A stretch of 32,000 bases of DNA from Candidatus Saccharimonadota bacterium (GCA_016432445.1 CP066689.1:120001-152000); one strand, 5' to 3'; shown: positions 11,853 to 25,376, counted from the first letter of the stretch. Numbers and translations are program-made. The notes: a model not told the origin generated them from the sequence alone.

Positions 11853-12251
11853 ATGTTTCCTTATAAAAAAATAATAATTTTCTTGATTTTATTGTTTGTA
11901 AATATTTTTTTAGTGTCTAATGTTAATGCTCAAACAGATGTTAAAGTAAATTTACCTTTTCAAATTCCTACACTTGGTGACCTTTTGACTTTTATTATCC
12001 GTTTCTTTTTTGCTGTGGCCGGATTAGTTGCTCTGATATACCTTCTTTTGGGAGCTTTAGCCTGGATTACATCTGGCGGCAATAAAGAGAATGTTGATAA
12101 GGCCCGAGAAAAAATTCAAAATGCCATTATTGGCGTAATCCTTATTGTTTTAGTTTTAGCTATTATTTGGACACTAGAGCAAATAGTATTCGCTCAGAAA
12201 ATTTGTTTTGGAATCTCCTGTCCATTGAGTATGCCAACCTTATTAAAATAA
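11853..12251 (+). CDS. TrbC/VirB2-like (type IV secretion pilin-like) small membrane protein
   Basis: Signal peptide (VNAQTD), TM1, a short polar loop (TSGGNKENVDKAREKIQNA), TM2 and a Cys-containing tail. This is the architecture of VirB2-type pilins. Confidence 0.5.
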   Translation: MFPYKKIIIFLILLFVNIFLVSNVNAQTDVKVNLPFQIPTLGDLLTFIIRFFFAVAGLVALIYLLLGALAWITSGGNKENVDKAREKIQNAIIGVILIVLVLAIIWTLEQIVFAQKICFGISCPLSMPTLLK

Positions 12252-12267
12252 CTTTGAAAAATAAAAA

Positions 12268-12609
12268 ATGGTGGCTCTCCCGGTGTATGCACAAGTTAGA
12301 GAATGGGGATCATGCGTAGTTGACGGCGTACCTACTTTAAAATGTTTAGAAGTAATCTTTGGTAATATTCTTTTTTTATCATCAGCTCTTATTATCTTGG
12401 CTCTTTTTATTATGTTTCTTGTGGGGTCGTTTAGCTATCTGACTTCTTTTGGCAATCCGGAAAAGATCAAGAAAGCTCAAGGAACTTTAAAATATGCTAT
12501 TATAGGTTTAGTTTTATTTTTAAGTTCTTATCTTATTCTTAAAACTATTGATTTTATTTTCCTGGGAAATCAGAATCTGATTTTCAACTTCAGCCTTCCA
12601 GGTCCTTAA
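12268..12609 (+). CDS. Second TrbC/VirB2-like pilin paralogue
   Basis: Same TM1-loop-TM2 layout (LTSFGNPEKIKKAQGTLKYA) with a very short signal-like N-terminus (MVALPVYAQ). It is in tandem with the preceding gene. Confidence 0.45.
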   Translation: MVALPVYAQVREWGSCVVDGVPTLKCLEVIFGNILFLSSALIILALFIMFLVGSFSYLTSFGNPEKIKKAQGTLKYAIIGLVLFLSSYLILKTIDFIFLGNQNLIFNFSLPGP

Positions 12610-15831: not shown

Positions 15832-15904
15832 TCCCCTGTAGCTCAACGGTACCGCGCCCGCCATCGCAAGCATGAGCTTGCTCAGGCGTTGCGGGCGGGG
15901 AGCA
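15832..15904 (+). other. tRNA-sized chimera: exact 5' 20 nt and 3' 8 nt of tRNA-Asn flanking a GC-rich extended hairpin
   Basis: 15832-15851 is identical to 16162-16181 (TCCCCTGTAGCTCAACGGTA). 15897-15904 (GGGGAGCA) is identical to 16228-16235. The core 15852-15900 folds as CCGCGCCCGC/GCGGGCGGGG (9 of 10 bp) enclosing GCAAGC-ATGA-GCTTGC. No anticodon or T arm can be drawn. Confidence 0.6.
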
Positions 15905-15922
15905 AAAAGCTATAATAAAACT

Positions 15923-16159
15923 ATGTTTTACACATATGTTTTAAAAAGCTATAAAGATAATAAATTATATATAGGTTTTAGTGACAATTTAAAGCAAAGA
16001 ATAGAAGACCATAATAATGGTAAAGTTTCCTCAACTAAAGATAGACGGCCATTAAAACTTATATATTATGAAGCTTGTTTATCTAAATTAAAGGCTCTTA
16101 AGAGAGAAAAATATTTCAAGACAGGATTTGGTAGACAGTATCTTAAAAATAGAATTTAA
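15923..16159 (+). CDS. Small GIY-YIG nuclease family protein (UPF0213/URI-like)
   Basis: FYTYVLKSYKDNKLYIGFSDNLKQRIEDHNNG...YFKTGFGRQYLK contains the GIY...YIG motifs, a conserved Arg, and the Glu in YYE. The start is placed at the ATG at 15923, 6 nt after a TATAAT (15911-15916). The ORF-track N-terminal extension runs through the GC hairpin. Confidence 0.85.
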   Translation: MFYTYVLKSYKDNKLYIGFSDNLKQRIEDHNNGKVSSTKDRRPLKLIYYEACLSKLKALKREKYFKTGFGRQYLKNRI

Positions 16160-16161
16160 CA

Positions 16162-16233
16162 TCCCCTGTAGCTCAACGGTAGAGCAGGTCGCTGTTAACG
16201 ACAAGGTTCGTGGTTCGAATCCACGCGGGGGAG
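16162..16233 (+). tRNA. tRNA-Asn (anticodon GTT)
   Basis: Cloverleaf: acceptor TCCCCTG/CGGGGGA, D-arm GCTC-AACGGTA-GAGC, anticodon arm GGTCG-CTGTTAA-CGACA (27:43 G-A mismatch), variable region AGGTT, and T-arm CGTGG-TTCGAAT-CCACG. The discriminator is G and no CCA is encoded. Confidence 0.9.
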
Positions 16234-17742
16234 CATTGTTGAATTTTTAGGTTGATTTGCGATTATAAAATACGGTTTCTTCCAGTCCCATCGGGCTTTT
16301 CCGTCCTTCCACTCTAAGTTCTCACAAAAGATATCAACCATTTCCCTTTTGTTTTCTGGTAAGGCCAGTCTTAGTCTTTTGGTGACGTGCTTTATGTTAT
16401 CTAGGAACTGGTACATAAGCTCGTCTAGTTCGCTAACGATATTCTCACATTTAATAATCGTATTTCGATAAGACGCTTCCTTTCGACGACTGTCTTCCAT
16501 AAGCCGGTTATAATCAGCCTTCATAAGCTCACCCCCTGAAAAGCGTCGACCCATATCGATTTGAAGATTTTGTTCGGTTGAAATCTTTTCGCCAAACTCC
16601 CGAACTTGTTTTTTAATATCTAGTTTTTGTGGTTGGTTTATCTCCACTACATAATCACGCGCTTCTTTCCAAGTATCCTGGTCTATTTCAATTCGTTCAA
16701 AAGCGGTCATTAAACTATCTTCAAGTTGTTTTTCAGGGATATAGGTGATTCGGGCAATATCTTTACAAGGGGACCGTCGTTTTCCACACCGATAATAGGT
16801 AATACCTTTTTTGTGCGTTCCTGAAAGCATTCCACCACACAGACCGCACTTAAACATACCTGAATATGCGTAATCTAGGTGGGTTGTTTTTGGGTGTTCG
16901 TGATCGGTGATAATTTCTTGTACGCGATAAAATAATGGGGTGTCAATTAAAGGTACATATTCGCCCGCAATCCTTTCTCCGTCGCTTTCGAAGATTCCTG
17001 TGTACTGAACGTCACTTAATCTGTTTCGCCAAGTGTTCTTATGAAATCCACCTGATACTGACTTACCAGACAGTAATCCGATATTTTTAGCATATTCGGC
17101 GATTTGTTCGAATGTGTAGTTACCGGTAGCAAACTGTTCGAAAACCATTTTAACTAACGGTCCTCGTACAGGATCGACAATCCACTTCTTACGACCCACG
17201 GGTCCTTCGGTAATATAACCTAGAATTGCCGGTCTTGCCGGGTGCTTCATTATCTTTGCTTTTGATTTCATACCCTCTATGGTCCTGTATCCGGTATCGT
17301 CGCTTGATTTTTTGGACATAGCAAATTCGATAGCTACCATTAGCTGATCCCCGGACGAATCAGTAAAGACTTTTGTGGGCGTATAAATTCGTTTGATTAT
17401 TCCGTTTTGTAAATACCACAGAATCATTCCACCGTCGGCAAAATTACGCGCAAGACGACTAATTTCGGTACAAACAATCCCGTCGATTTCGCCTTTATGG
17501 TCTTTAAGGTAATCGAGCATATTGGCAAAACTATCGCGTGCGAAAGCTTCATAACCGGTTTTATCGTCTTCAAAAATAGGACCAACTAATTCAAGTTTGT
17601 ATCTTGCTATAGCGTCTTTAACGAAGGTCTTTTGATATTCTAATGAATTTAATTGTTTACTCGCTTCACCTTTAAGATTGTCTTCCGAAGACTTCCGGAT
17701 ATAGGCGACCACGCGATTATATTTTGGTGGGTTATCTTCCAT
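16195..17742 (-). CDS. Large serine recombinase (resolvase catalytic domain, recombinase domain, zinc ribbon, coiled coil)
   Basis: VVAYIRKSSED carries the catalytic Ser and ICTEISRLARN is also present. The zinc ribbon is CGLCGGMLSG...YYRCGKRRSPC, followed by a long helical C-terminus. The start is set at MEDNPPKYN (17742). The last 13 codons (MLPRVDSNHEPCR) are antisense to the tRNA-Asn 3' half. Confidence 0.9.
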   Translation of the reverse strand: MEDNPPKYNRVVAYIRKSSEDNLKGEASKQLNSLEYQKTFVKDAIARYKLELVGPIFEDDKTGYEAFARDSFANMLDYLKDHKGEIDGIVCTEISRLARNFADGGMILWYLQNGIIKRIYTPTKVFTDSSGDQLMVAIEFAMSKKSSDDTGYRTIEGMKSKAKIMKHPARPAILGYITEGPVGRKKWIVDPVRGPLVKMVFEQFATGNYTFEQIAEYAKNIGLLSGKSVSGGFHKNTWRNRLSDVQYTGIFESDGERIAGEYVPLIDTPLFYRVQEIITDHEHPKTTHLDYAYSGMFKCGLCGGMLSGTHKKGITYYRCGKRRSPCKDIARITYIPEKQLEDSLMTAFERIEIDQDTWKEARDYVVEINQPQKLDIKKQVREFGEKISTEQNLQIDMGRRFSGGELMKADYNRLMEDSRRKEASYRNTIIKCENIVSELDELMYQFLDNIKHVTKRLRLALPENKREMVDIFCENLEWKDGKARWDWKKPYFIIANQPKNSTMLPRVDSNHEPCR

Positions 17743-18031
17743 ATTTATCTTTGGTGACGGCTTTATTAAGCTTGTCGAACGTTTCACTAAACGATTGTGG
17801 ACCCTTGCCTTTAGTAATTACCTTTCTAAATTCTTCGAGATCTGTCGTAATAATTCTTTGTTTGTTTTTTATTGTTATTTGGGCTTGTGGTTCGGTGTAT
17901 ATTCTTTGGACGACTTTAACAAATCGCTTAAAGCTACTTAATAGGGGTGGAATATCCTTATCGCCCAATTTAGGATCGCGTTTTAACAAGTGCGATATAA
18001 AATTCTTTTGTGCTTTACTTGTATTTTCCAT
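17732..18031 (-). CDS. Hypothetical basic protein (99 aa)
   Basis: It is co-directional and tightly spaced with its neighbours, with a 5-nt gap upstream and an 11-nt overlap with the recombinase start. It is preferred over the overlapping plus-strand ORF. Confidence 0.45.
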   Translation of the reverse strand: MENTSKAQKNFISHLLKRDPKLGDKDIPPLLSSFKRFVKVVQRIYTEPQAQITIKNKQRIITTDLEEFRKVITKGKGPQSFSETFDKLNKAVTKDKYGR

Positions 18032-18036
18032 ATTTA

Positions 18037-18567
18037 TCAGTTAACTAGTGCCGGTCGACTGTTTATTTCAAATAATCTGTCTATTTCCTGAATAAGTTCT
18101 GGCGGTAAAGTCACTTCTTGCTTGGGTACTTGTATATTGGCTGAACTAACGGTATTAGGTAGCCCTAGCGCGGTTCTTTCGCCTTCTATGGCTGTCTTTA
18201 GTATTCCGGCTAGAAAAGTTAATTCCTTGACGTCCCAAGACCTGTAACCATTTTCAGTAAAAGATTGATCTAACTTATTTAATAAGTTACTTGCCAGATC
18301 TTGAATCGTTCGCCACGTTTTAATATGTCTGGCAATCGTTTGATTTATTAGTTCGACCCGATTTTCGACAAATGTTTCTTCGGCCAAATCGTATAGGTTT
18401 CGTCTACGTTGAAGCCAGTTTTCGTTCTTGGCGCGAAGGCCTACTTCACTTTTGCTAACACCGAATTTATCGGCTACGTCTTGATACGAAGGAATCCTAC
18501 CTTCCGGATCGGGGGTTAAATAAAATTCTAGGGCCGATTCCCAATTTATTCCTTTTGGTCCGTCCAT
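18037..18567 (-). CDS. HTH-containing protein, terminase-small-subunit-like or DNA-binding accessory protein
   Basis: IPSYQDVADKFGVSKSEVGLRAKNENW is an HTH-like segment near the N-terminus and the rest looks helical. The assignment is weak. Confidence 0.45.
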   Translation of the reverse strand: MDGPKGINWESALEFYLTPDPEGRIPSYQDVADKFGVSKSEVGLRAKNENWLQRRRNLYDLAEETFVENRVELINQTIARHIKTWRTIQDLASNLLNKLDQSFTENGYRSWDVKELTFLAGILKTAIEGERTALGLPNTVSSANIQVPKQEVTLPPELIQEIDRLFEINSRPALVN

Positions 18568-18579
18568 AGTTTCTTAAAA

Positions 18580-19305
18580 TCATTTGTTAGCTTGGATAGG
18601 ATTACCCAAAACTGCTACGCCAACACCTTCGTTAGCATAAGCACACCCCACGCTAAAATCACCCAATAATGACAATCTATGGCCCGGTGAACCAGACCAA
18701 AAATCTATAGCGTCTTTGGTTGTGTATGTGTCTTTGATATAGAGTTCAGCGATAGGTGCGAATTTCTTATCTATTTCTTCATTTTTAACCCATTCTTCAA
18801 ATCCCTCGTGTCCTACGTCACCACTTTTAACTTTTAGGTATCTAGCGACAAGGTTATCGCAGATATAAGGATCGAGCTTTAATTCTAATTTTCCGTTTGC
18901 TAGCCGATATTCGTTCATTGAATCAAAAAGTTGTTGGCCTGTGTAATTAGCCTTTTTGTAACCAGAGTTAGCATTTCTATATCCAATTAAAAATACTAAC
19001 CCAATAAGTCCGAGTAAAACGACCGAAAAAACAGCTTTTTTTGTAGATAGACCCAATGGCGGTTTATATTCAGACTTATCCTTTTTTATTAAAATAACGA
19101 GCCAAGTTAATACCATTAACCCGAATGAAATAGCACCGATACCGATAGTAGATAACATTGGAAATAGCCACGGGGTTTCGGGTCCACCTGAAAAATTGGG
19201 ATCGTGTGTCATTCCCTTAGTGGTATAAACGATAATAAAGGCAAAAAATAAACAAGCCAAAGCCCACAAAATTGCTGTTATGTTGTTAATTTTTTTCAAT
19301 TTCAT
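18580..19305 (-). CDS. Membrane-anchored CAP/SCP (PR-1/YkwD-like) domain protein
   Basis: Three to four N-terminal TM helices are followed by NEYRLANGKLELKLDPYICDNLVARY...GHEGF...FWSGSPGHRLSLLGDFSVGCAY, matching the CAP-domain motif series. Confidence 0.65.
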   Translation of the reverse strand: MKLKKINNITAILWALACLFFAFIIVYTTKGMTHDPNFSGGPETPWLFPMLSTIGIGAISFGLMVLTWLVILIKKDKSEYKPPLGLSTKKAVFSVVLLGLIGLVFLIGYRNANSGYKKANYTGQQLFDSMNEYRLANGKLELKLDPYICDNLVARYLKVKSGDVGHEGFEEWVKNEEIDKKFAPIAELYIKDTYTTKDAIDFWSGSPGHRLSLLGDFSVGCAYANEGVGVAVLGNPIQANK

Positions 19306-19331
19306 AATCTACACTTTTATTTTACATTAAA

Positions 19332-21419
19332 TTAAGAAATCTTATTTGGCGCTGTTTTTCCTGTCGATATGCTGATTTGGTAAGCCCCAATCCTAAGTAA
19401 GATACAAAAAATCCAGTGACCGTAATTTAATAGATAATTTTCCCGAAACATTAAGGCGTGGGATACATTATTTCGAAGATTATATCCACCTAGCTCGATA
19501 AGAACATATTTCATAAGGATTAGTAAGTCGTTTCCGAATATCTCCCCGGCGTAAGGTTCTCTTAAAAGTTCGTCGAGTCCTTTTTTTTCGGTTACTTGTT
19601 TGCCACCACGTTCAGTTTTGATCTTATCGACCGGCTTACCAATCGTTTCGTAAAACTCCCGGATTAAGCCTTCAATCTTGGGGGTTAAAGAATCGATAGC
19701 CAGAACAAGATTGGTTCTAGCTTCCTCGACATTGTTATTCTTAATCATTTCTAAAGTAGTAAGATATGCTCGAATACCGGGCCGCAAAATATCTATCCAT
19801 TTTCTTGATTTCAAAAGAACTTCTTTAGTGTCCGAATCGTGTAGCTCGTATTCTTTCCCATACCACAAATGATCGGACATATACTTAATTACCGATTCTA
19901 AATCTAGTTTACCCGCGTCAATTAGTTCCTCGAATAAGACTTTTACCATAGCTTCGTAAGTTATTAAGGAAAACTGATATTGACGTAGTAGGGAATAGTA
20001 TTTCTTTTCAAGTTCACTATCGTATTTTCGCGGCATATTCCCTGAACTATCAAATACGCTGTGGGAAAACAAGGATTGTAGCGGAAATTCTTTATCCATT
20101 TTTTCTGCCTGCTTTTTCACTTCTTCGTATTTTGGAAGGATTGAACCGTCCACGGTCAGCCTAACTAAAAGTTGTTCTTTGCTTTCTTTAGCGATTAAAG
20201 CCTTAAACTGTTCTCTAATTTGTTTCACCCAGTCTGTAAGATCCATTGTTTGACTGAATGTTTGGAATTTTAGATTCTTTTTGGATTCTTGAAGCGTCTT
20301 TTCGAGTTCTTCTACTTTTTTTTGATTACCCAGTGTTTTATATTCAGTAATAGCCTTGATAAGAAGATCCGATTGAACGAAGCCGTCTTTTTTTGCGTTA
20401 GCTTCGTCTTCAAACGAAGAAGCAATCTTTTGACGCCAGTTTTTTCCTTGAAGCCCAAAAACAAGCCGTTCGATTTTCTCGCCCAGTGATAAAAAGTCCC
20501 TAGCAAAATAGAGGTTATTCTTTTTTTCTTGTTCGTCGGCCATTCTTTTACAAATCTTCACCGTGTTTTCCCAGAAATCCTTTCCATATTCTTTCCAGTT
20601 TTCTAAGGCGAACTCGATAAGACGGTGTGTAACAGCCCACCGGGATTCACTTTGATTATCAAAGTTCAAAATCGTGTTAGCGATTGATTGATTTACTTCG
20701 TTTATATTGTGTTTTATCTTCTTGGCAAGAATGTAGGCACTTCTTAGAGCGTTTACTATTTCAAAAGCGGAAGTTCCTTCCGGGTCTTTCTTAACTTCGA
20801 TATGTAACCAATCGACAACCTTTAAGTATTCCGTTATAGCTGTCTGGGCCATTTTATGATCCTTTTCGGTGATCCATAAAAAGTGTGCGATCCGTGACTT
20901 TATTCTTGGGTGCTTATATTTCGGAAGTAGTGATCTGATATAAGTGAAGTCGGATTTTGAAAAATCTTCTAAGTTCGGGAAGGCCCAATACTTGCCATTT
21001 TCGTCCGTCCCCGACATTTTGGATTTGAATTCGTCGTCTTTTACTTGAAAGCTGAAAAGGTTAATAAGCGCTTGAAATCTATCCCTTTCCCTCTCGTCGT
21101 CGAGAATAAAATAAGACAAATCTCTTGCTTCCCGGAAATGATCGCCCATTGTGAATTCATATTTAGCGTCTTCTGCGATACTATCTAAAGAAGCTAAGCT
21201 ATCGTCGATTTTCTTTCTAGCTACTTCTTTGTCGTCTGTTCCAAGCCTAACCATATCCTTAAACCGTTTTAATTTTTCAAGGTCGTATCGCCGATCACCT
21301 CGATCGTTGATTTTTTCGGCTTGAAGTTTTTTAGTCCTATCCCACCGACGAAGGGTTTCGGGGTGAATTCCCAAAAATTCTGCCGCTTGCGTTACTGAAT
21401 AATATGTTTTTTTAGCCAT
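19332..21419 (-). CDS. 695-aa protein: N-terminal MerR/excisionase-type HTH plus a large helical region ending in a HEPN-like R-x4-H motif (DUF4209/Abi-like)
   Basis: The N-terminus is YYSVTQAAEFLGIHPETLRRWDR...RYDLEKLKRF. The C-terminus is LIELGGYNLRNNVSHALMF, with R649 and H654 encoded at 19458-19475. Confidence 0.6.
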   Translation of the reverse strand: MAKKTYYSVTQAAEFLGIHPETLRRWDRTKKLQAEKINDRGDRRYDLEKLKRFKDMVRLGTDDKEVARKKIDDSLASLDSIAEDAKYEFTMGDHFREARDLSYFILDDERERDRFQALINLFSFQVKDDEFKSKMSGTDENGKYWAFPNLEDFSKSDFTYIRSLLPKYKHPRIKSRIAHFLWITEKDHKMAQTAITEYLKVVDWLHIEVKKDPEGTSAFEIVNALRSAYILAKKIKHNINEVNQSIANTILNFDNQSESRWAVTHRLIEFALENWKEYGKDFWENTVKICKRMADEQEKKNNLYFARDFLSLGEKIERLVFGLQGKNWRQKIASSFEDEANAKKDGFVQSDLLIKAITEYKTLGNQKKVEELEKTLQESKKNLKFQTFSQTMDLTDWVKQIREQFKALIAKESKEQLLVRLTVDGSILPKYEEVKKQAEKMDKEFPLQSLFSHSVFDSSGNMPRKYDSELEKKYYSLLRQYQFSLITYEAMVKVLFEELIDAGKLDLESVIKYMSDHLWYGKEYELHDSDTKEVLLKSRKWIDILRPGIRAYLTTLEMIKNNNVEEARTNLVLAIDSLTPKIEGLIREFYETIGKPVDKIKTERGGKQVTEKKGLDELLREPYAGEIFGNDLLILMKYVLIELGGYNLRNNVSHALMFRENYLLNYGHWIFCILLRIGAYQISISTGKTAPNKIS

Positions 21420-21422
21420 ATG

Positions 21423-21465
21423 ACTTATACTATCTACTTATACAGTATATGGTATAATAAATCAA
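21423..21465. promoter_or_regulatory. Overlapping divergent promoters with repeated ACTTATAC boxes and a TATACAGTATA palindrome
   Basis: Plus strand: extended -10 TGGTATAAT (21450-21458). Minus strand: TTGATT (21460-21465), N17, TATAAG (21437-21442). ACTTATAC occurs at 21423-21430 and 21436-21443, and the palindrome at 21439-21449. Confidence 0.4.
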
Positions 21466-21490
21466 GTCGCGTTTTCGACGGGGTATCAAT

Positions 21491-22060
21491 ATGTCATACG
21501 ATCTTAACGTTTCAAAATTAACAAAGTTCAAAGGGAAAACCATATTCCTTTTTGATTCGAGCACGTTTTGTAGATATGAAGAACTGTCTTTGTATTCAGG
21601 AATTGACTTCTTTGAAGTAGTAGGAAAGCTAGATAGGATCGTTTTTCTACTAACAAACGAAGTAATCGTAGAACTAATGAACGGTCCTAGAAAATTTCAC
21701 CCCAAGTTTTTACTAGATCACATAATCAATGTCGACGGTTCAATGGACCATTCCCTGAAAGAAAATAGATTTTTATATGAAAAAGAAGGAAAACTACACT
21801 ATTTGGTATTAAACAAAGTTTCTGCCGTCGATTGGAATCAAGTTCTATTATGTCAAAATCATTCAGATCTTGTACTGGTAACGAACGATAGAAAACTATT
21901 GAAAAGTTCGAAGGTCATTTTAGGCGATCGATCGTTTGGGGCGGCTTCATTGATTTATAAACTACTTGAAATGTATCCGGATAACACCGAACTTCAATCT
22001 TTGGAAATAAAATCAAAAGAACTTTTTAAGCACGAAAAACTAGGTAGTATAAGGTACTAG
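21491..22060 (+). CDS. PIN-domain (predicted RNase) protein
   Basis: The four acidic positions occur in canonical order and context: IFLFDSS (D22), TNEVIVEL, SAVDWNQVLL and LVLVTNDRKLL. Confidence 0.65.
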   Translation: MSYDLNVSKLTKFKGKTIFLFDSSTFCRYEELSLYSGIDFFEVVGKLDRIVFLLTNEVIVELMNGPRKFHPKFLLDHIINVDGSMDHSLKENRFLYEKEGKLHYLVLNKVSAVDWNQVLLCQNHSDLVLVTNDRKLLKSSKVILGDRSFGAASLIYKLLEMYPDNTELQSLEIKSKELFKHEKLGSIRY

Positions 22061-22345
22061 TACAAGTCTGCTACTGTATTATCAAGCGTTTAAGGCTAAA
22101 GAATTACCCTTAAAACATTCGTTTACGAATCTTATGTCTACCTCGTCGGGTAGAATAGGGGTTAGGATTTGGTCTATAAAATAAGTTCTCACCCGTTTCA
22201 ATAGGGCGAGCCAGATAGGACGCTGAGCGTATAAATGCCCAGTTTGTCCCGCGATATCAGACTTTTCTTTAGGTTCGAATAATCTGTAAACAAGCCCCCG
22301 CTAAAAGACAAGTGCTGAACCTCTCTTGAGTGTATTTAATTTCTC

Positions 22346-22393
22346 TTGACAACTAACATTGAAGGATTTATTATTTGAATAATCGTTCAAATA
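22346..22393 (+). promoter_or_regulatory. mer-operon promoter TTGACA-N17-TATTAT with an overlapping 8-6-8 inverted-repeat operator
   Basis: TTGACA at 22346-22351 and TATTAT at 22369-22374. The perfect inverted repeat TATTTGAA-taatcg-TTCAAATA at 22372-22393 ends 2 nt before the ATG at 22396, a typical position and shape for an ArsR/SmtB operator. Confidence 0.55.
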
Positions 22394-22395
22394 CT

Positions 22396-22701
22396 ATGGC
22401 AGAGTATCAACAGATAAAAAAGGAATTAAAGAATAAACAGAAACTCTTAGCTTGCGCAAGGCAGTTTGGGGTGGTAGGTGATGCTACCAGGCTTAAAATT
22501 TGTTACCTTCTATGTCATTATCCCGAAGTTTCTGTTGGTCAAATGGCAGAAATCCTGGATACTTCTATTTCTGTTGTTTCCCATAGCGTAAAAAAGCTTT
22601 TAGAACTTGAGCTTGTGACAAGGAGAAAAGAAGCACAAACTGTGTACTATTCTTTGACAACTAATGATTTTACTAAGACGCTTAAAAATTTTATCACATA
22701 A
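22396..22701 (+). CDS. ArsR/SmtB-family metal-responsive transcriptional repressor
   Basis: DATRLKICYLLCHYPEVSVGQMAEILDTSISVVSHSVKKLLELELVTRR is a winged HTH with Cys residues in the alpha3 region. The ATG at 22396 is preferred over the TTG at 22375, which lies inside the -10/operator. Confidence 0.85.
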   Translation: MAEYQQIKKELKNKQKLLACARQFGVVGDATRLKICYLLCHYPEVSVGQMAEILDTSISVVSHSVKKLLELELVTRRKEAQTVYYSLTTNDFTKTLKNFIT

Positions 22702-22703
22702 CT

Positions 22704-23339
22704 ATGAGGAAAGAAGAACAACAAAAACAAATTTCTAATTCAGCACTTAAATGGAGTGCGCTCTCGGCGCTTATCGCCTCTTTGTGTTGTATTGGGCCAT
22801 TAGTATTGGTTCTCTTTGGCATAGGCGGAGCCTCAACAGCATTAGCCATTGGCTACCGTAAGCCGTACTTTCTGCTTTTTGGCTTAGCAGTGCTTATTAT
22901 TGGATTAGTTTTCATCTATCGCAAAAGTTGTAGTACTACAAAATTAAGTAGGAAACAGCAAGTATTCATCTTCGGAGGTTCGTTTCTGGTTGCGGCATTA
23001 TTATATTACTTTTTGACCTATGTGGGAGTGCCGGCAGTTACCCCGCTGGTATATCAGTCCAGCAGCGCTTCAAACATATTAGCCTCCTTTTCAAATAACA
23101 GACCCAATAAAGCAACACTCAAAATAGAGGGAATGTCGTGTGCCTCATGTGCAGTAAGTGCACAATATAGCTTAAAAAGCCTTCCCGGTGTTGCTGACGC
23201 TTATATTGGCCTTACGAAAAACCTTGATGGTGAAGGTTGGATAGTCTATGAACCTGATCAGGTGACTAAAGAACAAATTATTAAGGCGATTGAACCATAT
23301 AAAGCAACGTTTACATCTGATAGCGTGTACACTCAATAA
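22704..23339 (+). CDS. Mercury transporter-like membrane protein (vicinal Cys in TM1) fused to a C-terminal heavy-metal-associated (MerP-like) domain
   Basis: LIASLCCIGPLVLVLFGIGG is a MerT/MerF-type CC motif, and three to four TM helices follow. The HMA domain is LKIEGMSCASCAVSAQYSLKSLPGV. Confidence 0.7.
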   Translation: MRKEEQQKQISNSALKWSALSALIASLCCIGPLVLVLFGIGGASTALAIGYRKPYFLLFGLAVLIIGLVFIYRKSCSTTKLSRKQQVFIFGGSFLVAALLYYFLTYVGVPAVTPLVYQSSSASNILASFSNNRPNKATLKIEGMSCASCAVSAQYSLKSLPGVADAYIGLTKNLDGEGWIVYEPDQVTKEQIIKAIEPYKATFTSDSVYTQ

Positions 23340-23353
23340 AGACGCAAAACATT

Positions 23354-23599
23354 ATGACTAAATTAACTATTGTTCATATTAAAGATTGCACATGCTGTGA
23401 AAGCGTAATCAAAATATCAAAGGAATTGGAGAAAGAAATGGATATTGAATTAAAACTGCAGAATTGGGATGAGTCTAAAGATTTGATTGAGAAAAACAAA
23501 ATTGTCTCTTCGCCGGCGATCTTTATCAATGATGAGTTCGTTCACGCCGGAGAGCTTAGTAAAGAGGAGTTAAAAGATTTAATTAAAAAACATGAATAA
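23354..23599 (+). CDS. Small thioredoxin-fold protein (Thioredoxin_3/glutaredoxin-like) with a CTCC motif
   Basis: LTIVHIKDCTCCESV...SSPAIFINDEFVHAGELSKEELKDLI has the layout of redox-active disulfide protein 2-type minimal thioredoxins. Confidence 0.55.
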   Translation: MTKLTIVHIKDCTCCESVIKISKELEKEMDIELKLQNWDESKDLIEKNKIVSSPAIFINDEFVHAGELSKEELKDLIKKHE

Positions 23600-23939
23600 A
23601 ACTCAAATTCAAATTTTATATTTCCCAGATTGCCCAATCTATAAAGAGCTTGAGAAACTTGTAAGAGAGGTTATCCGAGAACTTAGCATTAATGCGGACT
23701 TGGAATTAATCAATATTCAAACAAAAGAGGATGCCGAGAAGTATCACTTTACCGGTTCGCCCGGACTCCGCATTAACGGAAAAGACATTGACCCCCTGAC
23801 AGAAAATGCGCAGGTGGTTCTTAAGAGCTGCAAGATTTATCGCACTGAGGAAGGTATGAAAATGATTCCTACAAAAAAGATGATTCGAGAAGCTCTGAAG
23901 AAAGAGGAAATGGAAGGAAAAGAGTGTTGTAAAATATAA
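23592..23939 (+). CDS. Small thioredoxin-fold-like protein with a single CP motif and a C-terminal vicinal Cys pair (ECCKI)
   Basis: ILYFPDCPIYKEL...GSPGLRINGKDI is Trx-like, with a further Cys in LKSCKIY and a C-terminal CC. It overlaps the previous gene by 8 nt. Confidence 0.45.
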   Translation: MNKTQIQILYFPDCPIYKELEKLVREVIRELSINADLELINIQTKEDAEKYHFTGSPGLRINGKDIDPLTENAQVVLKSCKIYRTEEGMKMIPTKKMIREALKKEEMEGKECCKI

Positions 23940-23942
23940 AGT

Positions 23943-25376
23943 ATGGAAGAGTATGACTTGATCATTATAGGTGGTGGGGCAGGAGCGTTTGCTGCGGCTA
24001 TTAAGGCTAATGAGTTGGGGGCTAAAACCTTAATGGTAAATTATGGCCTGCCTTTGGGTGGTACTTGCGTGAATGTCGGTTGTATTCCATCTAAAAACTT
24101 ACTTAAAGCTGGCGAAGTGCTGTATTACAGCCAGCATCATAATTTCAGTGGTATCAAACTAAGGGTTGATGAATTTGATTTTGGCAAAACCGTTCAAGAG
24201 GAACTGGATGTGGTGGCGATGATGAGAAAGGAAAAATATGAGGACGTCTTAAAGAATTTGCAAAACGTTACTTTTATTGAAGGTAGAGCAAAGTTTACCT
24301 CACCCACAGAAATTGAAGTAAACAACCCCTCCTTCGCCGAGGCTCCAGCGGGCAAGCAAAAATATCAAGGTAAGAAGTTTGTTATTGCTACCGGTTCAAC
24401 TGCTAATGTTCCTCCTGTAGAAGGCCTTAAAGAAGCGGGGTACTTAACTCATATTGAGGCTTTAGCCGGAAAGATTCAGCCGAAATCTTTAATCATCATA
24501 GGAGCCGGGCCATTAGGGCTTGAGTTTGCCCAAATGTTTCATCATTTTGGAACTAAAGTTATAGTTTTACAAAGAGGTAATACTATTCTTCCAAGAGTTG
24601 AACCGGAAATTGCTTCAGCCTTACAAAAGTACTTATCCGATGAAGGAATTGAACTTTATACAGAAGCTGAAACACTGTCGGTTCGTAAAGTCGGTTTAGA
24701 AAAGATAGTTAAGGCTAAGATAAACGGAGTTGAACAGGAGTTTAGAGCAGAGGAGATACTTTTAGCGTCAGGCAAGACCGCTAATACTAAAGATTTAAAC
24801 TTACAGGTAGCGGGAGTAGGGATTGACGAGAGACAAGCTATCAAAGTCAATGAGTCCCAAAAGACCTCCCAAGACCATATTTTTGCTGTTGGGGATGTAA
24901 CAAACCAAAAGCTAAGGCTTGAGACAATAGCTGGTAGAGAAGGAACTTTAGCCGCCAAAAATGTCTTTACCGGCAGTCGCGACAGTATCAACTACCGGCA
25001 GGTTCCCTACGCTGTCTTTACTTATCCGGCCGTGGCAAGTATAGGGATGACTGATGCGGAAGTTATTGAAAGCGGCGGCAGGTGTAGTTGCAAAACTATT
25101 GACTTTTCCAAAGTTCCCAAGGCAGGTGCCATCAAAGATACCAGAGGAGTTATTAAAATGGTGATAAATAACGAAAATAGAAAAATTTTAGGTATCCATA
25201 TGGTAGCGCCGGAGGCAGCAGATATTATCAACCAGGGAATTTACATCTTAAAAGGAGGCATGACAGTTGATGATGTGATAGACAGTTTGCCTGTCTTTCC
25301 AACCCTTTCAGAAAGCATAAAAATCGCCGCTTTGTCATTTACTACTGATATCAATAAACTTAGCTGTTGTGTGTAA
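23943..25376 (+). CDS. merA: Mercuric reductase, core enzyme without the NmerA domain
   Basis: FAD motif IIIGGGAGAFAAA, redox-active GGTCVNVGCIPSK, NADPH motif IIGAGPLGLEFA, and the MerA-diagnostic C-terminal vicinal cysteines (KLSCCV-stop). Confidence 0.9.
   Translation: MEEYDLIIIGGGAGAFAAAIKANELGAKTLMVNYGLPLGGTCVNVGCIPSKNLLKAGEVLYYSQHHNFSGIKLRVDEFDFGKTVQEELDVVAMMRKEKYEDVLKNLQNVTFIEGRAKFTSPTEIEVNNPSFAEAPAGKQKYQGKKFVIATGSTANVPPVEGLKEAGYLTHIEALAGKIQPKSLIIIGAGPLGLEFAQMFHHFGTKVIVLQRGNTILPRVEPEIASALQKYLSDEGIELYTEAETLSVRKVGLEKIVKAKINGVEQEFRAEEILLASGKTANTKDLNLQVAGVGIDERQAIKVNESQKTSQDHIFAVGDVTNQKLRLETIAGREGTLAAKNVFTGSRDSINYRQVPYAVFTYPAVASIGMTDAEVIESGGRCSCKTIDFSKVPKAGAIKDTRGVIKMVINNENRKILGIHMVAPEAADIINQGIYILKGGMTVDDVIDSLPVFPTLSESIKIAALSFTTDINKLSCCV

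Follow-up and report, generated by a model that had tools for sequence, protein, structure and literature searches.

A probable six-kilobase integrative cassette with a large serine recombinase at the 3' end of tRNA-Asn in a Patescibacteria-like genome

Site-specific integration usually follows a simple rule, according to which tyrosine integrases are directed to transfer RNA (tRNA) genes and serine integrases to other sites (PMC8092301, PMC7168690). The locus considered here raises the question of how a large serine recombinase came to lie at the 3' end of a tRNA gene, and whether the DNA accompanying it forms an element with definable ends. It belongs to a stretch of 32,000 nucleotides (nt) from a Candidatus Saccharimonadota bacterium (CP066689.1:120001-152000), called the window hereafter, in which all coordinates are counted; a GC content of 36%, small genes and two T4SS_pilin genes (host genes at 11853-12609, outside the element) give the window the look of the Candidate Phyla Radiation (CPR) or Patescibacteria. 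An earlier note, made from the sequence alone, had delineated an island at 16162-22345 beside tRNA-Asn and had read it as a horizontally acquired, minimal integrative element led by a large serine recombinase. Both the acquisition and the minimal element find support in the composition, in the family-wide conservation of the target and in cross-host comparison. With a probability of about 0.8, the island is a site-specific integrative cassette of ~6 kb, inserted at the 3' end of tRNA-Asn(GTT) and belonging to a family specific to the CPR/Patescibacteria; with a serine recombinase at a tRNA, this family departs from the usual pattern that associates tyrosine integrases with tRNAs.

The foreign character of the segment is apparent from its composition. 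The excess of CpG dinucleotides that had been perceived by eye is borne out, the observed/expected ratio (o/e) reaching about 1.37-1.38 over 16162-22345 versus 0.74-0.76 in the flanks, whereas the bias of GpC is opposite (0.90 versus 1.21). For each of the six island genes, the CpG o/e lies within 1.09-1.47, the host mean being 0.73 (Mann-Whitney p 3.6e-6), and the highest value of any 6-kb host window does not exceed 0.88. Similarly, the tetranucleotide usage of the element correlates with that of the host at r = 0.085, versus at least 0.878 for host windows, and an unsupervised two-state dinucleotide Markov change-point segmentation converges on 16176-22299.

The gene next to the tRNA encodes a protein of 515 amino acids (aa) from its ATG, or 530 aa from a GTG at 17787, which by every sequence criterion belongs to the large serine recombinases. 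It matches the Resolvase (PF00239, E 6e-16), Recombinase (PF07508, E 2e-8) and Zn_ribbon_recom (PF13408, E 8e-9) domains, the latter two above their cut-offs, together with the PHROG 95 integrase family (E 9e-53); residues Y14, R16 and S18, an SRLARN motif and four cysteines are invariant in an alignment of 28 family members. Among 5.8 billion proteins searched, about 90 protein clusters share 37-91% identity with it, after which identity falls abruptly to ~30%. The family thus delimited is nearly all CPR/Patescibacteria, with labels such as Patescibacteria, Paceibacterota, Shapirobacteria, Woesebacteria and Dojkabacteria; none of its members occurs in 2.9 million IMG/VR contigs, and the closest phage integrases in GenBank share 22-23% identity with the recombinase. 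The 515-aa enzyme had been described as abutting tRNA-Asn, which is correct, the two genes in fact overlapping: the last 40 nt of the recombinase open reading frame (ORF) are antisense to the tRNA and its last 11 codons are antisense tRNA. Because the ORF runs antisense into the tRNA, the tail of the recombinase (...MLPRVDSNHEPCR) is translated tRNA. An exact look-up of the 515-aa protein found no record, because all contigs of the Logan assemblies cut it at the tRNA.

The association with tRNA-Asn extends across the family. A genome scan for recombinase relatives gave 25 loci, in which tRNAs were called with ARAGORN; in all, 134 loci were fetched (L-numbers hereafter, P-numbers being given to proteins). 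In at least 13 independent loci, the end of the recombinase gene overlaps tRNA-Asn(GTT) in antisense, as is the case in L018, L019, L025, L026, L029-L033 and L035-L037 (39-86% identity) and also in L131-L134, four contigs with a 91%-identical recombinase (P0001); L020, L022 and L034 present a like arrangement at the tRNA, truncated or masked. Many of the C-terminal tails in the 28-member alignment read ...S(T/N)x-L-(P/R)-x-D-S-N-(H/Q/L)-(E/Q/R)-P, in which the DSN motif corresponds to the antisense T-arm of the tRNA, since GGTTCGAATCC reads GAT TCG AAC.

The tRNA-Asn is the target and lies outside the island, the crossover falling within its last bases (discriminator/CCA), and the 3' part of the gene constitutes the B arm of the attachment (att) site. 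An Rfam scan of the whole window gave two tRNAs as its sole matches. JGI metagenomes were probed with the 3' half of tRNA-Asn followed by a base other than A, which matched 77 loci; the native gene ends in ...GGGGGAGCCA, and GGAGC-CA occurs in most of these loci. In the integrated state the tRNA end reads ...GGGGGAGC|ATTG, which means that the genomic CCA of the other loci (...GGAGCCA) has been lost here. Integration leaves the tRNA intact through the discriminator and swaps the encoded CCA for CAT; from what is generally known of tRNA maturation, the CCA would then have to be added enzymatically.

The far end of the element was less easily recognized. No direct repeat of the tRNA 3' end occurs there, a 24-mer searched with up to 3 mismatches being present in one copy, and a generic search for the far att site with the reverse complement of attL gave scores no better than those of shuffled controls. 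A 9-nt match to GGTTCGAAT at 22274, considered as an att repeat, is explained by the remnant of an old recombinase. Breakpoints were taken instead from homology across loci. The tetranucleotide GAGC is the sole sequence common to both element ends, and the relatives part from their tRNA or non-tRNA partners directly after GCTC, as it reads in the recombinase sense. In L052, identity amounts to 96% from TGGCTC inward and to ~45% (near background) outward, with a break exactly at 22208-22211; in L131 homology ends at 22218. On the element side of the far junction, GCTC-CGAYGRYTGAA is conserved across the family, and it always precedes a far-end peptide, ...LRRLKAVRT(Y/F)FIDQ(I/L)(L/V)TP..E.D..., which was recovered by tblastn 5-8 kb upstream of the recombinase end (L018-L022, L024, L026, L046-L051 and L131). 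Taken together, this conserved peptide, a metagenome remnant and the L052 and L131 breakpoints place the ends of the element at GAGC 16231-16234 and GAGC 22208-22211; elements reconstructed at nine loci measure 5.2-8.0 kb. The foreign segment delineated in the earlier note therefore stands but its right end does not, since the crossover lies at 22208-22211, 22212-22299 is a scar and 22300-22374 is host DNA. In the recombinase sense, attL reads ...AATTCAACAAT-GCTC-CCCCGCGTGGATTCGAACC (tRNA), attR reads ...CAGCGTCCTATCTG-GCTC-GCCCTATTGAAACGGGTGAGAAC, and the reconstructed attP reads ...TTCAACAAT-GCTC-GCCCTATTGAAACGG.

The scar beyond the right end points to an earlier occupant. In several metagenome loci, the ~70 nt which follow the tRNA are homologous to window positions 22212-22285 and form the 3' end of a distant large serine recombinase (460-542 aa, 20-26% identical to the window enzyme), whose ORF likewise enters tRNA-Asn (...PDWL|PRVDSNHEP in L070 and L073). 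Window positions 22213-22287 encode LFEPKEKSDIAGQTGHLYAQRPIWL, with 68% identity to the C-terminus of the L070 recombinase. With 5 CpG in 89 nt, the remnant is CpG-rich like foreign DNA, a composition which its origin as a scar explains, and host DNA resumes at ~22300. The tRNA-Asn site had thus been in use before the current element arrived.

Comparison with L131 reveals the modular build of the cassette. The L131 element occupies the same tRNA in a different host context and shares only two arms with the window, at 83-90% nt identity: the recombinase arm (18562-16162, comprising the 176-aa gene, the 99-aa gene, the recombinase and the tRNA), which is 83% identical, and the far arm (22218-21484, comprising a tail ORF and a 189-aa gene), which is 90% identical. 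The middle differs, a CAP-like gene and a 695-aa gene here versus a short-chain dehydrogenase and small ORFs in L131, and the host flanks are unrelated except for a GIY-YIG gene. This constitutes a cassette-style exchange of cargo at one target in different hosts. As had been stated earlier, no phage structural or conjugation genes are present: none of the six ORFs matches a relaxase, a coupling protein or type IV secretion in Pfam, NCBIfam or PHROG, no virion structural, packaging or lysis gene was found in the island with Pfam and PHROGs (the latter giving just integrase/HTH-type matches), and Pfam detects no Phage_integrase (tyrosine) domain in any island ORF.

From these data, a mechanism can be proposed in which the recombinase would join attP, located inside the 3' end of its own gene, to attB, the 3' end of tRNA-Asn(GTT), by a crossover in GAGC. 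After integration, the main part of the recombinase gene would read antisense into the tRNA, the body of which would be intact to the discriminator, and the last ~41 recombinase codons would be carried, together with a PIN-like gene, to the far end of the island. The two conserved arms flank a swappable cargo slot, occupied here by the CAP-like membrane protein and a PDC-S39-type candidate. An inverted repeat in attP, TCAA-N4-GCTC-N6-TTGA, is kept across the nine reconstructed loci; its centre falls between the T and the C of the core, which designates TC (GA on the + strand) as the probable crossover dinucleotide.

The codons carried to the far end correspond to a part of the island which had been taken for 285 nt of non-coding DNA and which is not all non-coding, for it holds a conserved ORF of 41 codons (22210-22082) and the recombinase remnant. 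This tail ORF has neither a conserved start codon of its own nor a conserved ribosome-binding site. In 9/9 loci with both ends, the G of GCTC is the third codon position in both the recombinase and the far-end ORF, so that the joined ends form one ORF of 545 aa ending in ...NSTM-LALLKRVRTYFIDQILTPILPDEVDIRFVNECFKGNSLALNA and a stop. The ratio of nonsynonymous to synonymous divergence in the tail (pN/pS) is 0.40 (pS 0.69 and pN 0.27 over 27 codons), which fits a constraint at the protein level past what an att arm needs. The tail would accordingly be the C-terminus of a 545-aa recombinase predicted for the excised form.

Other explanations have to be weighed against this interpretation. A far boundary at 22295-22299 was initially favoured, in which case the element would include the 88-nt remnant, the crossover would occur in AGC (16232-34/22295-97) and the excised-form recombinase would have a tail of 70 aa. 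The composition change-point at 22299 fits this boundary, the attB predicted from it contains a perfect 7-bp palindrome (GCGGGGG-AG-CCCCCGC), the recombinase frame is open across the join and the 88-nt segment holds a T-loop-like TTATTCGAACC. However, the identity of L052 (96%) and of L131 stops at 22211-22218, short of 22299, the family junction GCTC-CGAYGRYTGAA maps to 22208-22211, CCCCCGC follows tRNA-Asn in 0/77 metagenome loci, and the 88 nt have their homologue in the C-terminus of another recombinase lineage, one which directly abuts tRNA-Asn elsewhere. This last result of the metagenome scan, together with the L052 and L131 breakpoints, led to the abandonment of the boundary at 22295-22297, now considered very improbable. 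Even less credit can be given to a degraded prophage or phage satellite in place of an autonomous cassette: the match of the recombinase to a PHROG integrase family and the weak resemblance of the 176-aa protein to a small-terminase N-terminus would agree with it, but structural, packaging and lysis genes are lacking, the whole family has the same size of 5-8 kb, and both the absence of family members from IMG/VR and the distance to the nearest phage integrases speak for an autonomous cassette.

The nature of the tail is more debatable. It is possible, although this is not the reading we would choose, that the tail is an independent gene of ~40 aa, perhaps for a regulator or directionality factor, or that it owes its conservation solely to the binding of protein to its DNA, as the P arm. 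The proteins found by the profile search are all short (43-119 aa) and called on their own, in some loci an ATG or TTG lies in frame at or near the core, and the first ~25 nt of the tail must be conserved as an att arm anyway. These points have to be set against the lack of a conserved start codon or ribosome-binding site, a codon phase matching that of the recombinase, a conservation which extends over more than 80 nt in spite of near-saturated synonymous change, and arrays in which the tail continues, in frame, the remnant of an outer recombinase (P0126 and P0132). Doubts also surround the mobility of the island at the present day. Across many SRR121133xx/SRR121134xx runs assembled in Logan, the contigs of the left flank stop at 16231 or 16234 and those of the island start at 16205, k-1 before 16235, from which it follows that the assembly graphs branch exactly at the core; this branch may reflect other tRNA-Asn contexts instead of excision. 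The island could then be a fixed relic, acquired through the recombinase and now immobile, the enzyme being kept by chance or for another role and possibly inactivated by its antisense-tRNA C-terminus. This reading seems unlikely. Neither an empty site nor a circle was found, several relatives are decayed (the frameshifted recombinase of L024, and recombinase remnants) and the same island configuration occurs at 100% identity in many samples, all of which would agree with a relic. Nevertheless, the recombinase ORF is intact and keeps all the invariant residues of the family, the composition is entirely un-ameliorated, an element with 83-90%-identical arms and different cargo occupies the same tRNA in another host, and the graphs branch precisely at the core.

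Several results weigh against a mobile cassette with the ends and the split gene described above. The core comprises just 4 nt, so that the crossover position rests on the comparative breakpoints, and the B' side of attB varies among hosts, which is unusual for this class of enzymes; since that side is not conserved, recognition probably proceeds mainly via the tRNA arm. The Logan contigs cross the right junction unbroken. Junctions were predicted for the empty site (...GGGGGAGCCAGATAGGACGC) and the circle (...AATTCAACAATGCTCGCCCTATTGAAACGG), with synthetic sequences for attB (...GGTTCGAATCCACGCGGGGGAGCCAGATAGGACGCTGAGCG), attP (...CCTAAAAATTCAACAATGCTCGCCCTATTGAAACGGGTGAGAAC) and the rival attB at 22295-22297 (...GGGGGAGCCCCCGCTAAAAG). 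Exact-match look-ups of the flank-gene proteins in Logan, ENA and JGI yielded no empty attB for the window host, the flank contigs all stopping at the tRNA or carrying the island, and a gapped attP-shaped DNA pattern found no circular attP junction in IMG/VR and the 134 fetched loci. Present-day mobility, like the route of transfer between cells, is therefore presumptive. With respect to the split gene, the in-frame result at nine loci is phylogenetically non-independent, and the tail profile, run against the 5.8 billion proteins, retrieved 12 short proteins and no recombinase-tail fusion, which means that the excised form was never captured. Finally, the recombinases of L021, L023 and L043 sit away from any tRNA; we read them as outer array members or decayed copies, without proof for each.

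If the gene is split by its own attP, two forms of the enzyme might exist, a 545-aa form (VRTYFIDQ...tail) produced only from the circle and a 515-aa form produced from the integrated copy, and this C-terminal switch might set directionality or stability, an idea which we regard as speculative and rather improbable. The full-length form, for example, would integrate, and the truncated form would be inactive or would excise only with the 99-aa partner. Such a built-in state sensor would be undescribed for serine integrases and, in arrays, an incoming element would restore the tail to the resident recombinase.

The site has been used repeatedly by related and unrelated enzymes. In the tandem array of L046 (6540-15019), a family recombinase is separated from tRNA-Asn by 6.8 kb, over which a further set of genes extends, including a Tsp45I-type restriction-modification system and an HTH_17 protein; in that of L038 (1-10505), a second ORF of 490 aa overlaps the tRNA. 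The array recombinases of L046 and L038 have a long non-tRNA tail and lie 6.8-9.8 kb from tRNA-Asn. These two arrays, and the frameshifted pseudogene of L024, led us to reject the long-tailed recombinases P0014, P0036 and P0079 as excised attP forms; the contig of L043, a further long-tailed case, carries no tRNA. The far-end ORFs P0123, P0126, P0131 and P0132, taken from databases, join the tail at the core to what is left of the 3' part of a recombinase gene. The same tRNA-Asn 3' end is also entered in antisense by two or more other recombinase lineages, with 20-26% identity to the window enzyme and tails in ...WLPRVDSNHEP (L054, L062, L070, L073, L079, L088, L114 and L124), so that one site is contested by several lineages.

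The cassette can be compared to several known systems. Phage-type serine integrases such as phiC31, Bxb1, TP901-1 and A118/LI likewise combine a resolvase catalytic domain, a recombinase domain and a zinc ribbon, and likewise use short att sites with a tiny common core, no long direct repeats and an inverted repeat in attP; their unidirectional mechanism, dependent on a directionality factor, would be expected here too. Unlike them, the island family is foreign to IMG/VR, only distantly related to phage enzymes and devoid of phage genes, and whereas phage-type integrases target an ORF or intergenic site, the target is here a tRNA 3' end and attP would lie inside the gene of the integrase itself. 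The staphylococcal cassette chromosome (SCC), with CcrA/CcrB, also consists of small cassettes which use a large serine recombinase, occupy the extreme 3' end of one conserved gene, re-use the site serially (arrays, remnants), swap their cargo and have no transfer genes of their own. The best NCBIfam match of the recombinase is CcrA (E 7e-14), at 51.7 bits versus a cut-off of 700, CcrB reaching 26 versus 900. In contrast to SCC, the present family has one recombinase and not a pair, targets tRNA-Asn and not rlmH, resides in CPR hosts and carries a candidate for defence and not resistance. Tyrosine-integrase tRNA islands and prophages share with it the tRNA 3' end, an integrase gene adjoining the tRNA and tandem accretion, and their tRNA is kept functional by element-derived bases; unlike these islands, the cassette has no tyrosine recombinase and no direct repeat of 15-80 bp, 4 nt being common to its ends. 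By analogy, its closest functional counterpart would be an SCC-type cassette, or else a tRNA island in which the class of the enzyme has been swapped.

For a gene cut by its own attP beside a tRNA, the closest precedent is the integration-dependent immunity of mycobacteriophages, in which attP lies inside an element gene and integration alters the C-terminus of the product (PMC8092301); in the MabB/MabK prophages, attB overlaps a tRNA 3' end, transcription of this tRNA runs toward the truncated gene, and the product gains a few residues encoded by the host (PMC8092301). The integrase is there a tyrosine integrase and the cut gene is a repressor, whereas the gene that would be cut here is that of the serine recombinase itself. 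In SSV1-type elements, the gene of the tyrosine integrase is itself split by attP. No paper was found in the literature on tRNA-targeting serine-recombinase elements in the CPR, and the elements make up a family of small mobile cassettes that had not been described before, all at tRNA-Asn and with swappable, defence-like cargo. Mobile elements of the CPR/Patescibacteria are poorly charted, and a compact, recurrent family of cassettes with precise ends, one target and a cargo slot in which candidate defence genes accumulate shows how reduced CPR genomes exchange accessory functions. The family also supplies divergent serine integrases whose natural attB, the tRNA-Asn 3' end, is short, clearly delimited and highly conserved, which is of practical interest for genome engineering, and the predicted splitting of the integrase gene by its own attP offers a testable hypothesis on how directionality could be encoded. 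Lineages competing for one tRNA end and leaving scars and arrays also provide a small model of how an integration hotspot changes over time.

Table 1. Coordinates in the window of the tRNA target, the attachment cores and the genes of the putative cassette, with the evidence for each.
Feature	Position	Strand	Evidence
Host tRNA-Asn(GTT)	16162-16234	+	ARAGORN; Rfam tRNA, 63.8 bits
attL core GAGC (left crossover region)	16231-16234		Sole shared end sequence; divergence of relatives; Logan contig ends
Current integrative element, ~5.98 kb	16235-22207		Composition; L052 and L131 homology stops at the cores
Large serine recombinase, 515 aa (integrated form)	16195-17742	-	Pfam, PHROG, family alignment
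99-aa basic protein, isoelectric point 10.1	17732-18031	-	tblastn; overlaps recombinase start by 11 nt
176-aa acidic protein, N-terminal helix-turn-helix-like stretch	18037-18567	-	Conserved recombinase-side arm in close relatives
Cargo: 241-aa membrane protein, transmembrane helices	18580-19305	-	Borderline Pfam CAP
Cargo: 695-aa protein, MerR helix-turn-helix + DUF7380 + DUF4209	19332-21419	-	Pfam; PADLOC PDC-S39
189-aa PIN-like protein (plausible), far-end arm	21491-22060	+	AlphaFold2/Foldseek; L131 homology
Conserved tail ORF (LALLKRVRTYFIDQILTPILPDEVDIRFVNECFKGNSLALNA, stop), 41 codons, also holds the P arm	22082-22210	-	Peptide conservation in 10 loci; codon phase; pN/pS 0.40; L052 96%
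attR core GAGC (right crossover region)	22208-22211		L052 identity drop; L131 break; family junction motif
Older-element remnant, last ~28 recombinase codons (...LFEPKEKSDIAGQTGHLYAQRPIW)	22212-22299	-	L070 homology; CpG; change-point

The four further co-directional genes announced after the recombinase are all present, with products of 99, 176, 241 and 695 aa. The 99-aa gene was found by tblastn in 24/29 related loci, no match being obtained in those of Dojkabacteria, in L027 and L029 or in L038, which is truncated; its matches lie directly upstream of the recombinase in L018-L026, L028, L030, L039, L043-L051 and L131. Its product has no match among Pfam, PADLOC, NCBIfam and PHROG profiles and would be a candidate directionality or regulatory factor. 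The 176-aa protein is 86% identical in L131 and 43-65% identical in L024 and L026; the gene was rightly called, and its helix-turn-helix (HTH) corresponds to just a weak match to the PHROG small-terminase N-terminus, with no Pfam family. Transmembrane helices occur as described in the 241-aa protein, a gene absent from the L131 element, and its CAP domain is borderline (21.2 bits against a cut-off of 21.1).

The 695-aa protein had been described as HTH/HEPN-like; the MerR-type HTH is present, HEPN being a suggestion at the level of a motif only, RNNVSH (Rx4H) at residue 649, inside the DUF4209 match, with no HEPN profile hit. Residues 106-468 match two PADLOC PDC-S39 models (E 6.5e-50 and 2.7e-38), and a 60%-identical homologue occurs in L043 among type I/II restriction systems, Mrr and HNH-WYL genes; a HATPase_c_3 protein is carried by other family elements. 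PDC families of PADLOC are candidates by definition, and PDC-S39 is mentioned a single time in each of the two papers listed for it. To call the cargo defence-like, as had been done, is reasonable on the strength of the PDC-S39 match, although the link passes through a candidate family without a validated system, which tells against this part of the reading. The divergent gene of 189 aa is also present, and its product is 93% identical in L131. Pfam yields no match for it at a threshold as lax as E<=10; an AlphaFold2 model (pLDDT 80) finds PIN structures as its top PDB matches in Foldseek, all weak (Utp24 at E 4.7e-3, then HARP and VapC11; E 5e-3 to 0.1, TM-score 0.4-0.57), and D22, E61, D114 and D133 are invariant in 7 homologues. 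The PIN identity which had been assigned to it is therefore plausible, from a weak resemblance of the predicted fold. Where the 189-aa gene and the tail ORF converge, a perfect palindrome at 22054-22075 (GTACTAGTAC then AAGTCTGCTAC) separates the two; conserved in L018, L026, L052 and L131, it could be a bidirectional terminator or an operator.

Some other observations concern the recombinase family and its hosts. In L027 (11066-11200) and L028 (11500-11640), the recombinase abuts a sequence with the acceptor and T-arm of tRNA-Asn but without an ARAGORN call, and a similar uncalled tRNA-like sequence lies beside recombinases in L080, L087, L094, L096, L100 and others. In its upstream part, a CTGTAAG loop (anticodon GTA) is accompanied by an odd segment, "gatagtccagacc...ggtaaca". 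Such a sequence may represent a tRNA-Tyr-like gene, either unusual or interrupted, which shares the arm recognized by the recombinase. The metagenome-assembled genomes of L018, L020, L022, L030, L038 and L039 are labelled "uncultured Gammaproteobacteria bacterium", yet their gene content and their synteny with the window clearly mark them as CPR-like; the label is Actinomycetota for L024 and Nevskiaceae for L027. All these labels are probably errors of taxonomy or binning.

On the other side of the target, a GIY-YIG nuclease gene (15872-16159) lies directly 5' of tRNA-Asn. Ahead of it, the 5' end of tRNA-Asn is repeated exactly over 20 nt (15832-15851, tcccctgtagctcaacggta), followed by a GC-rich hairpin and ...cggggagca, the whole resembling a mini tRNA-like unit. 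The same layout adjoins tRNA-Asn in other hosts (L019, L132-L134), and with such recurrence it would seem that mobile DNA exploits this tRNA gene at both ends. Beyond the right end, the island adjoins a mer-like operon of host-like composition (22375-25376), which comprises an ArsR-type regulator, a MerT-HMA fusion, two thioredoxin-fold proteins and a MerA-like pyridine-nucleotide disulphide oxidoreductase; a mercury-resistance-like operon is an unusual gene content for a CPR genome. Logan contigs of several runs break recurrently at 16205-16234 (the att core), at 22367-22369, 29 nt upstream of the ArsR start, and at 22557-22602, inside the ArsR gene; the latter two breaks may mark strain variation in the promoter or the regulator of the mer operon.

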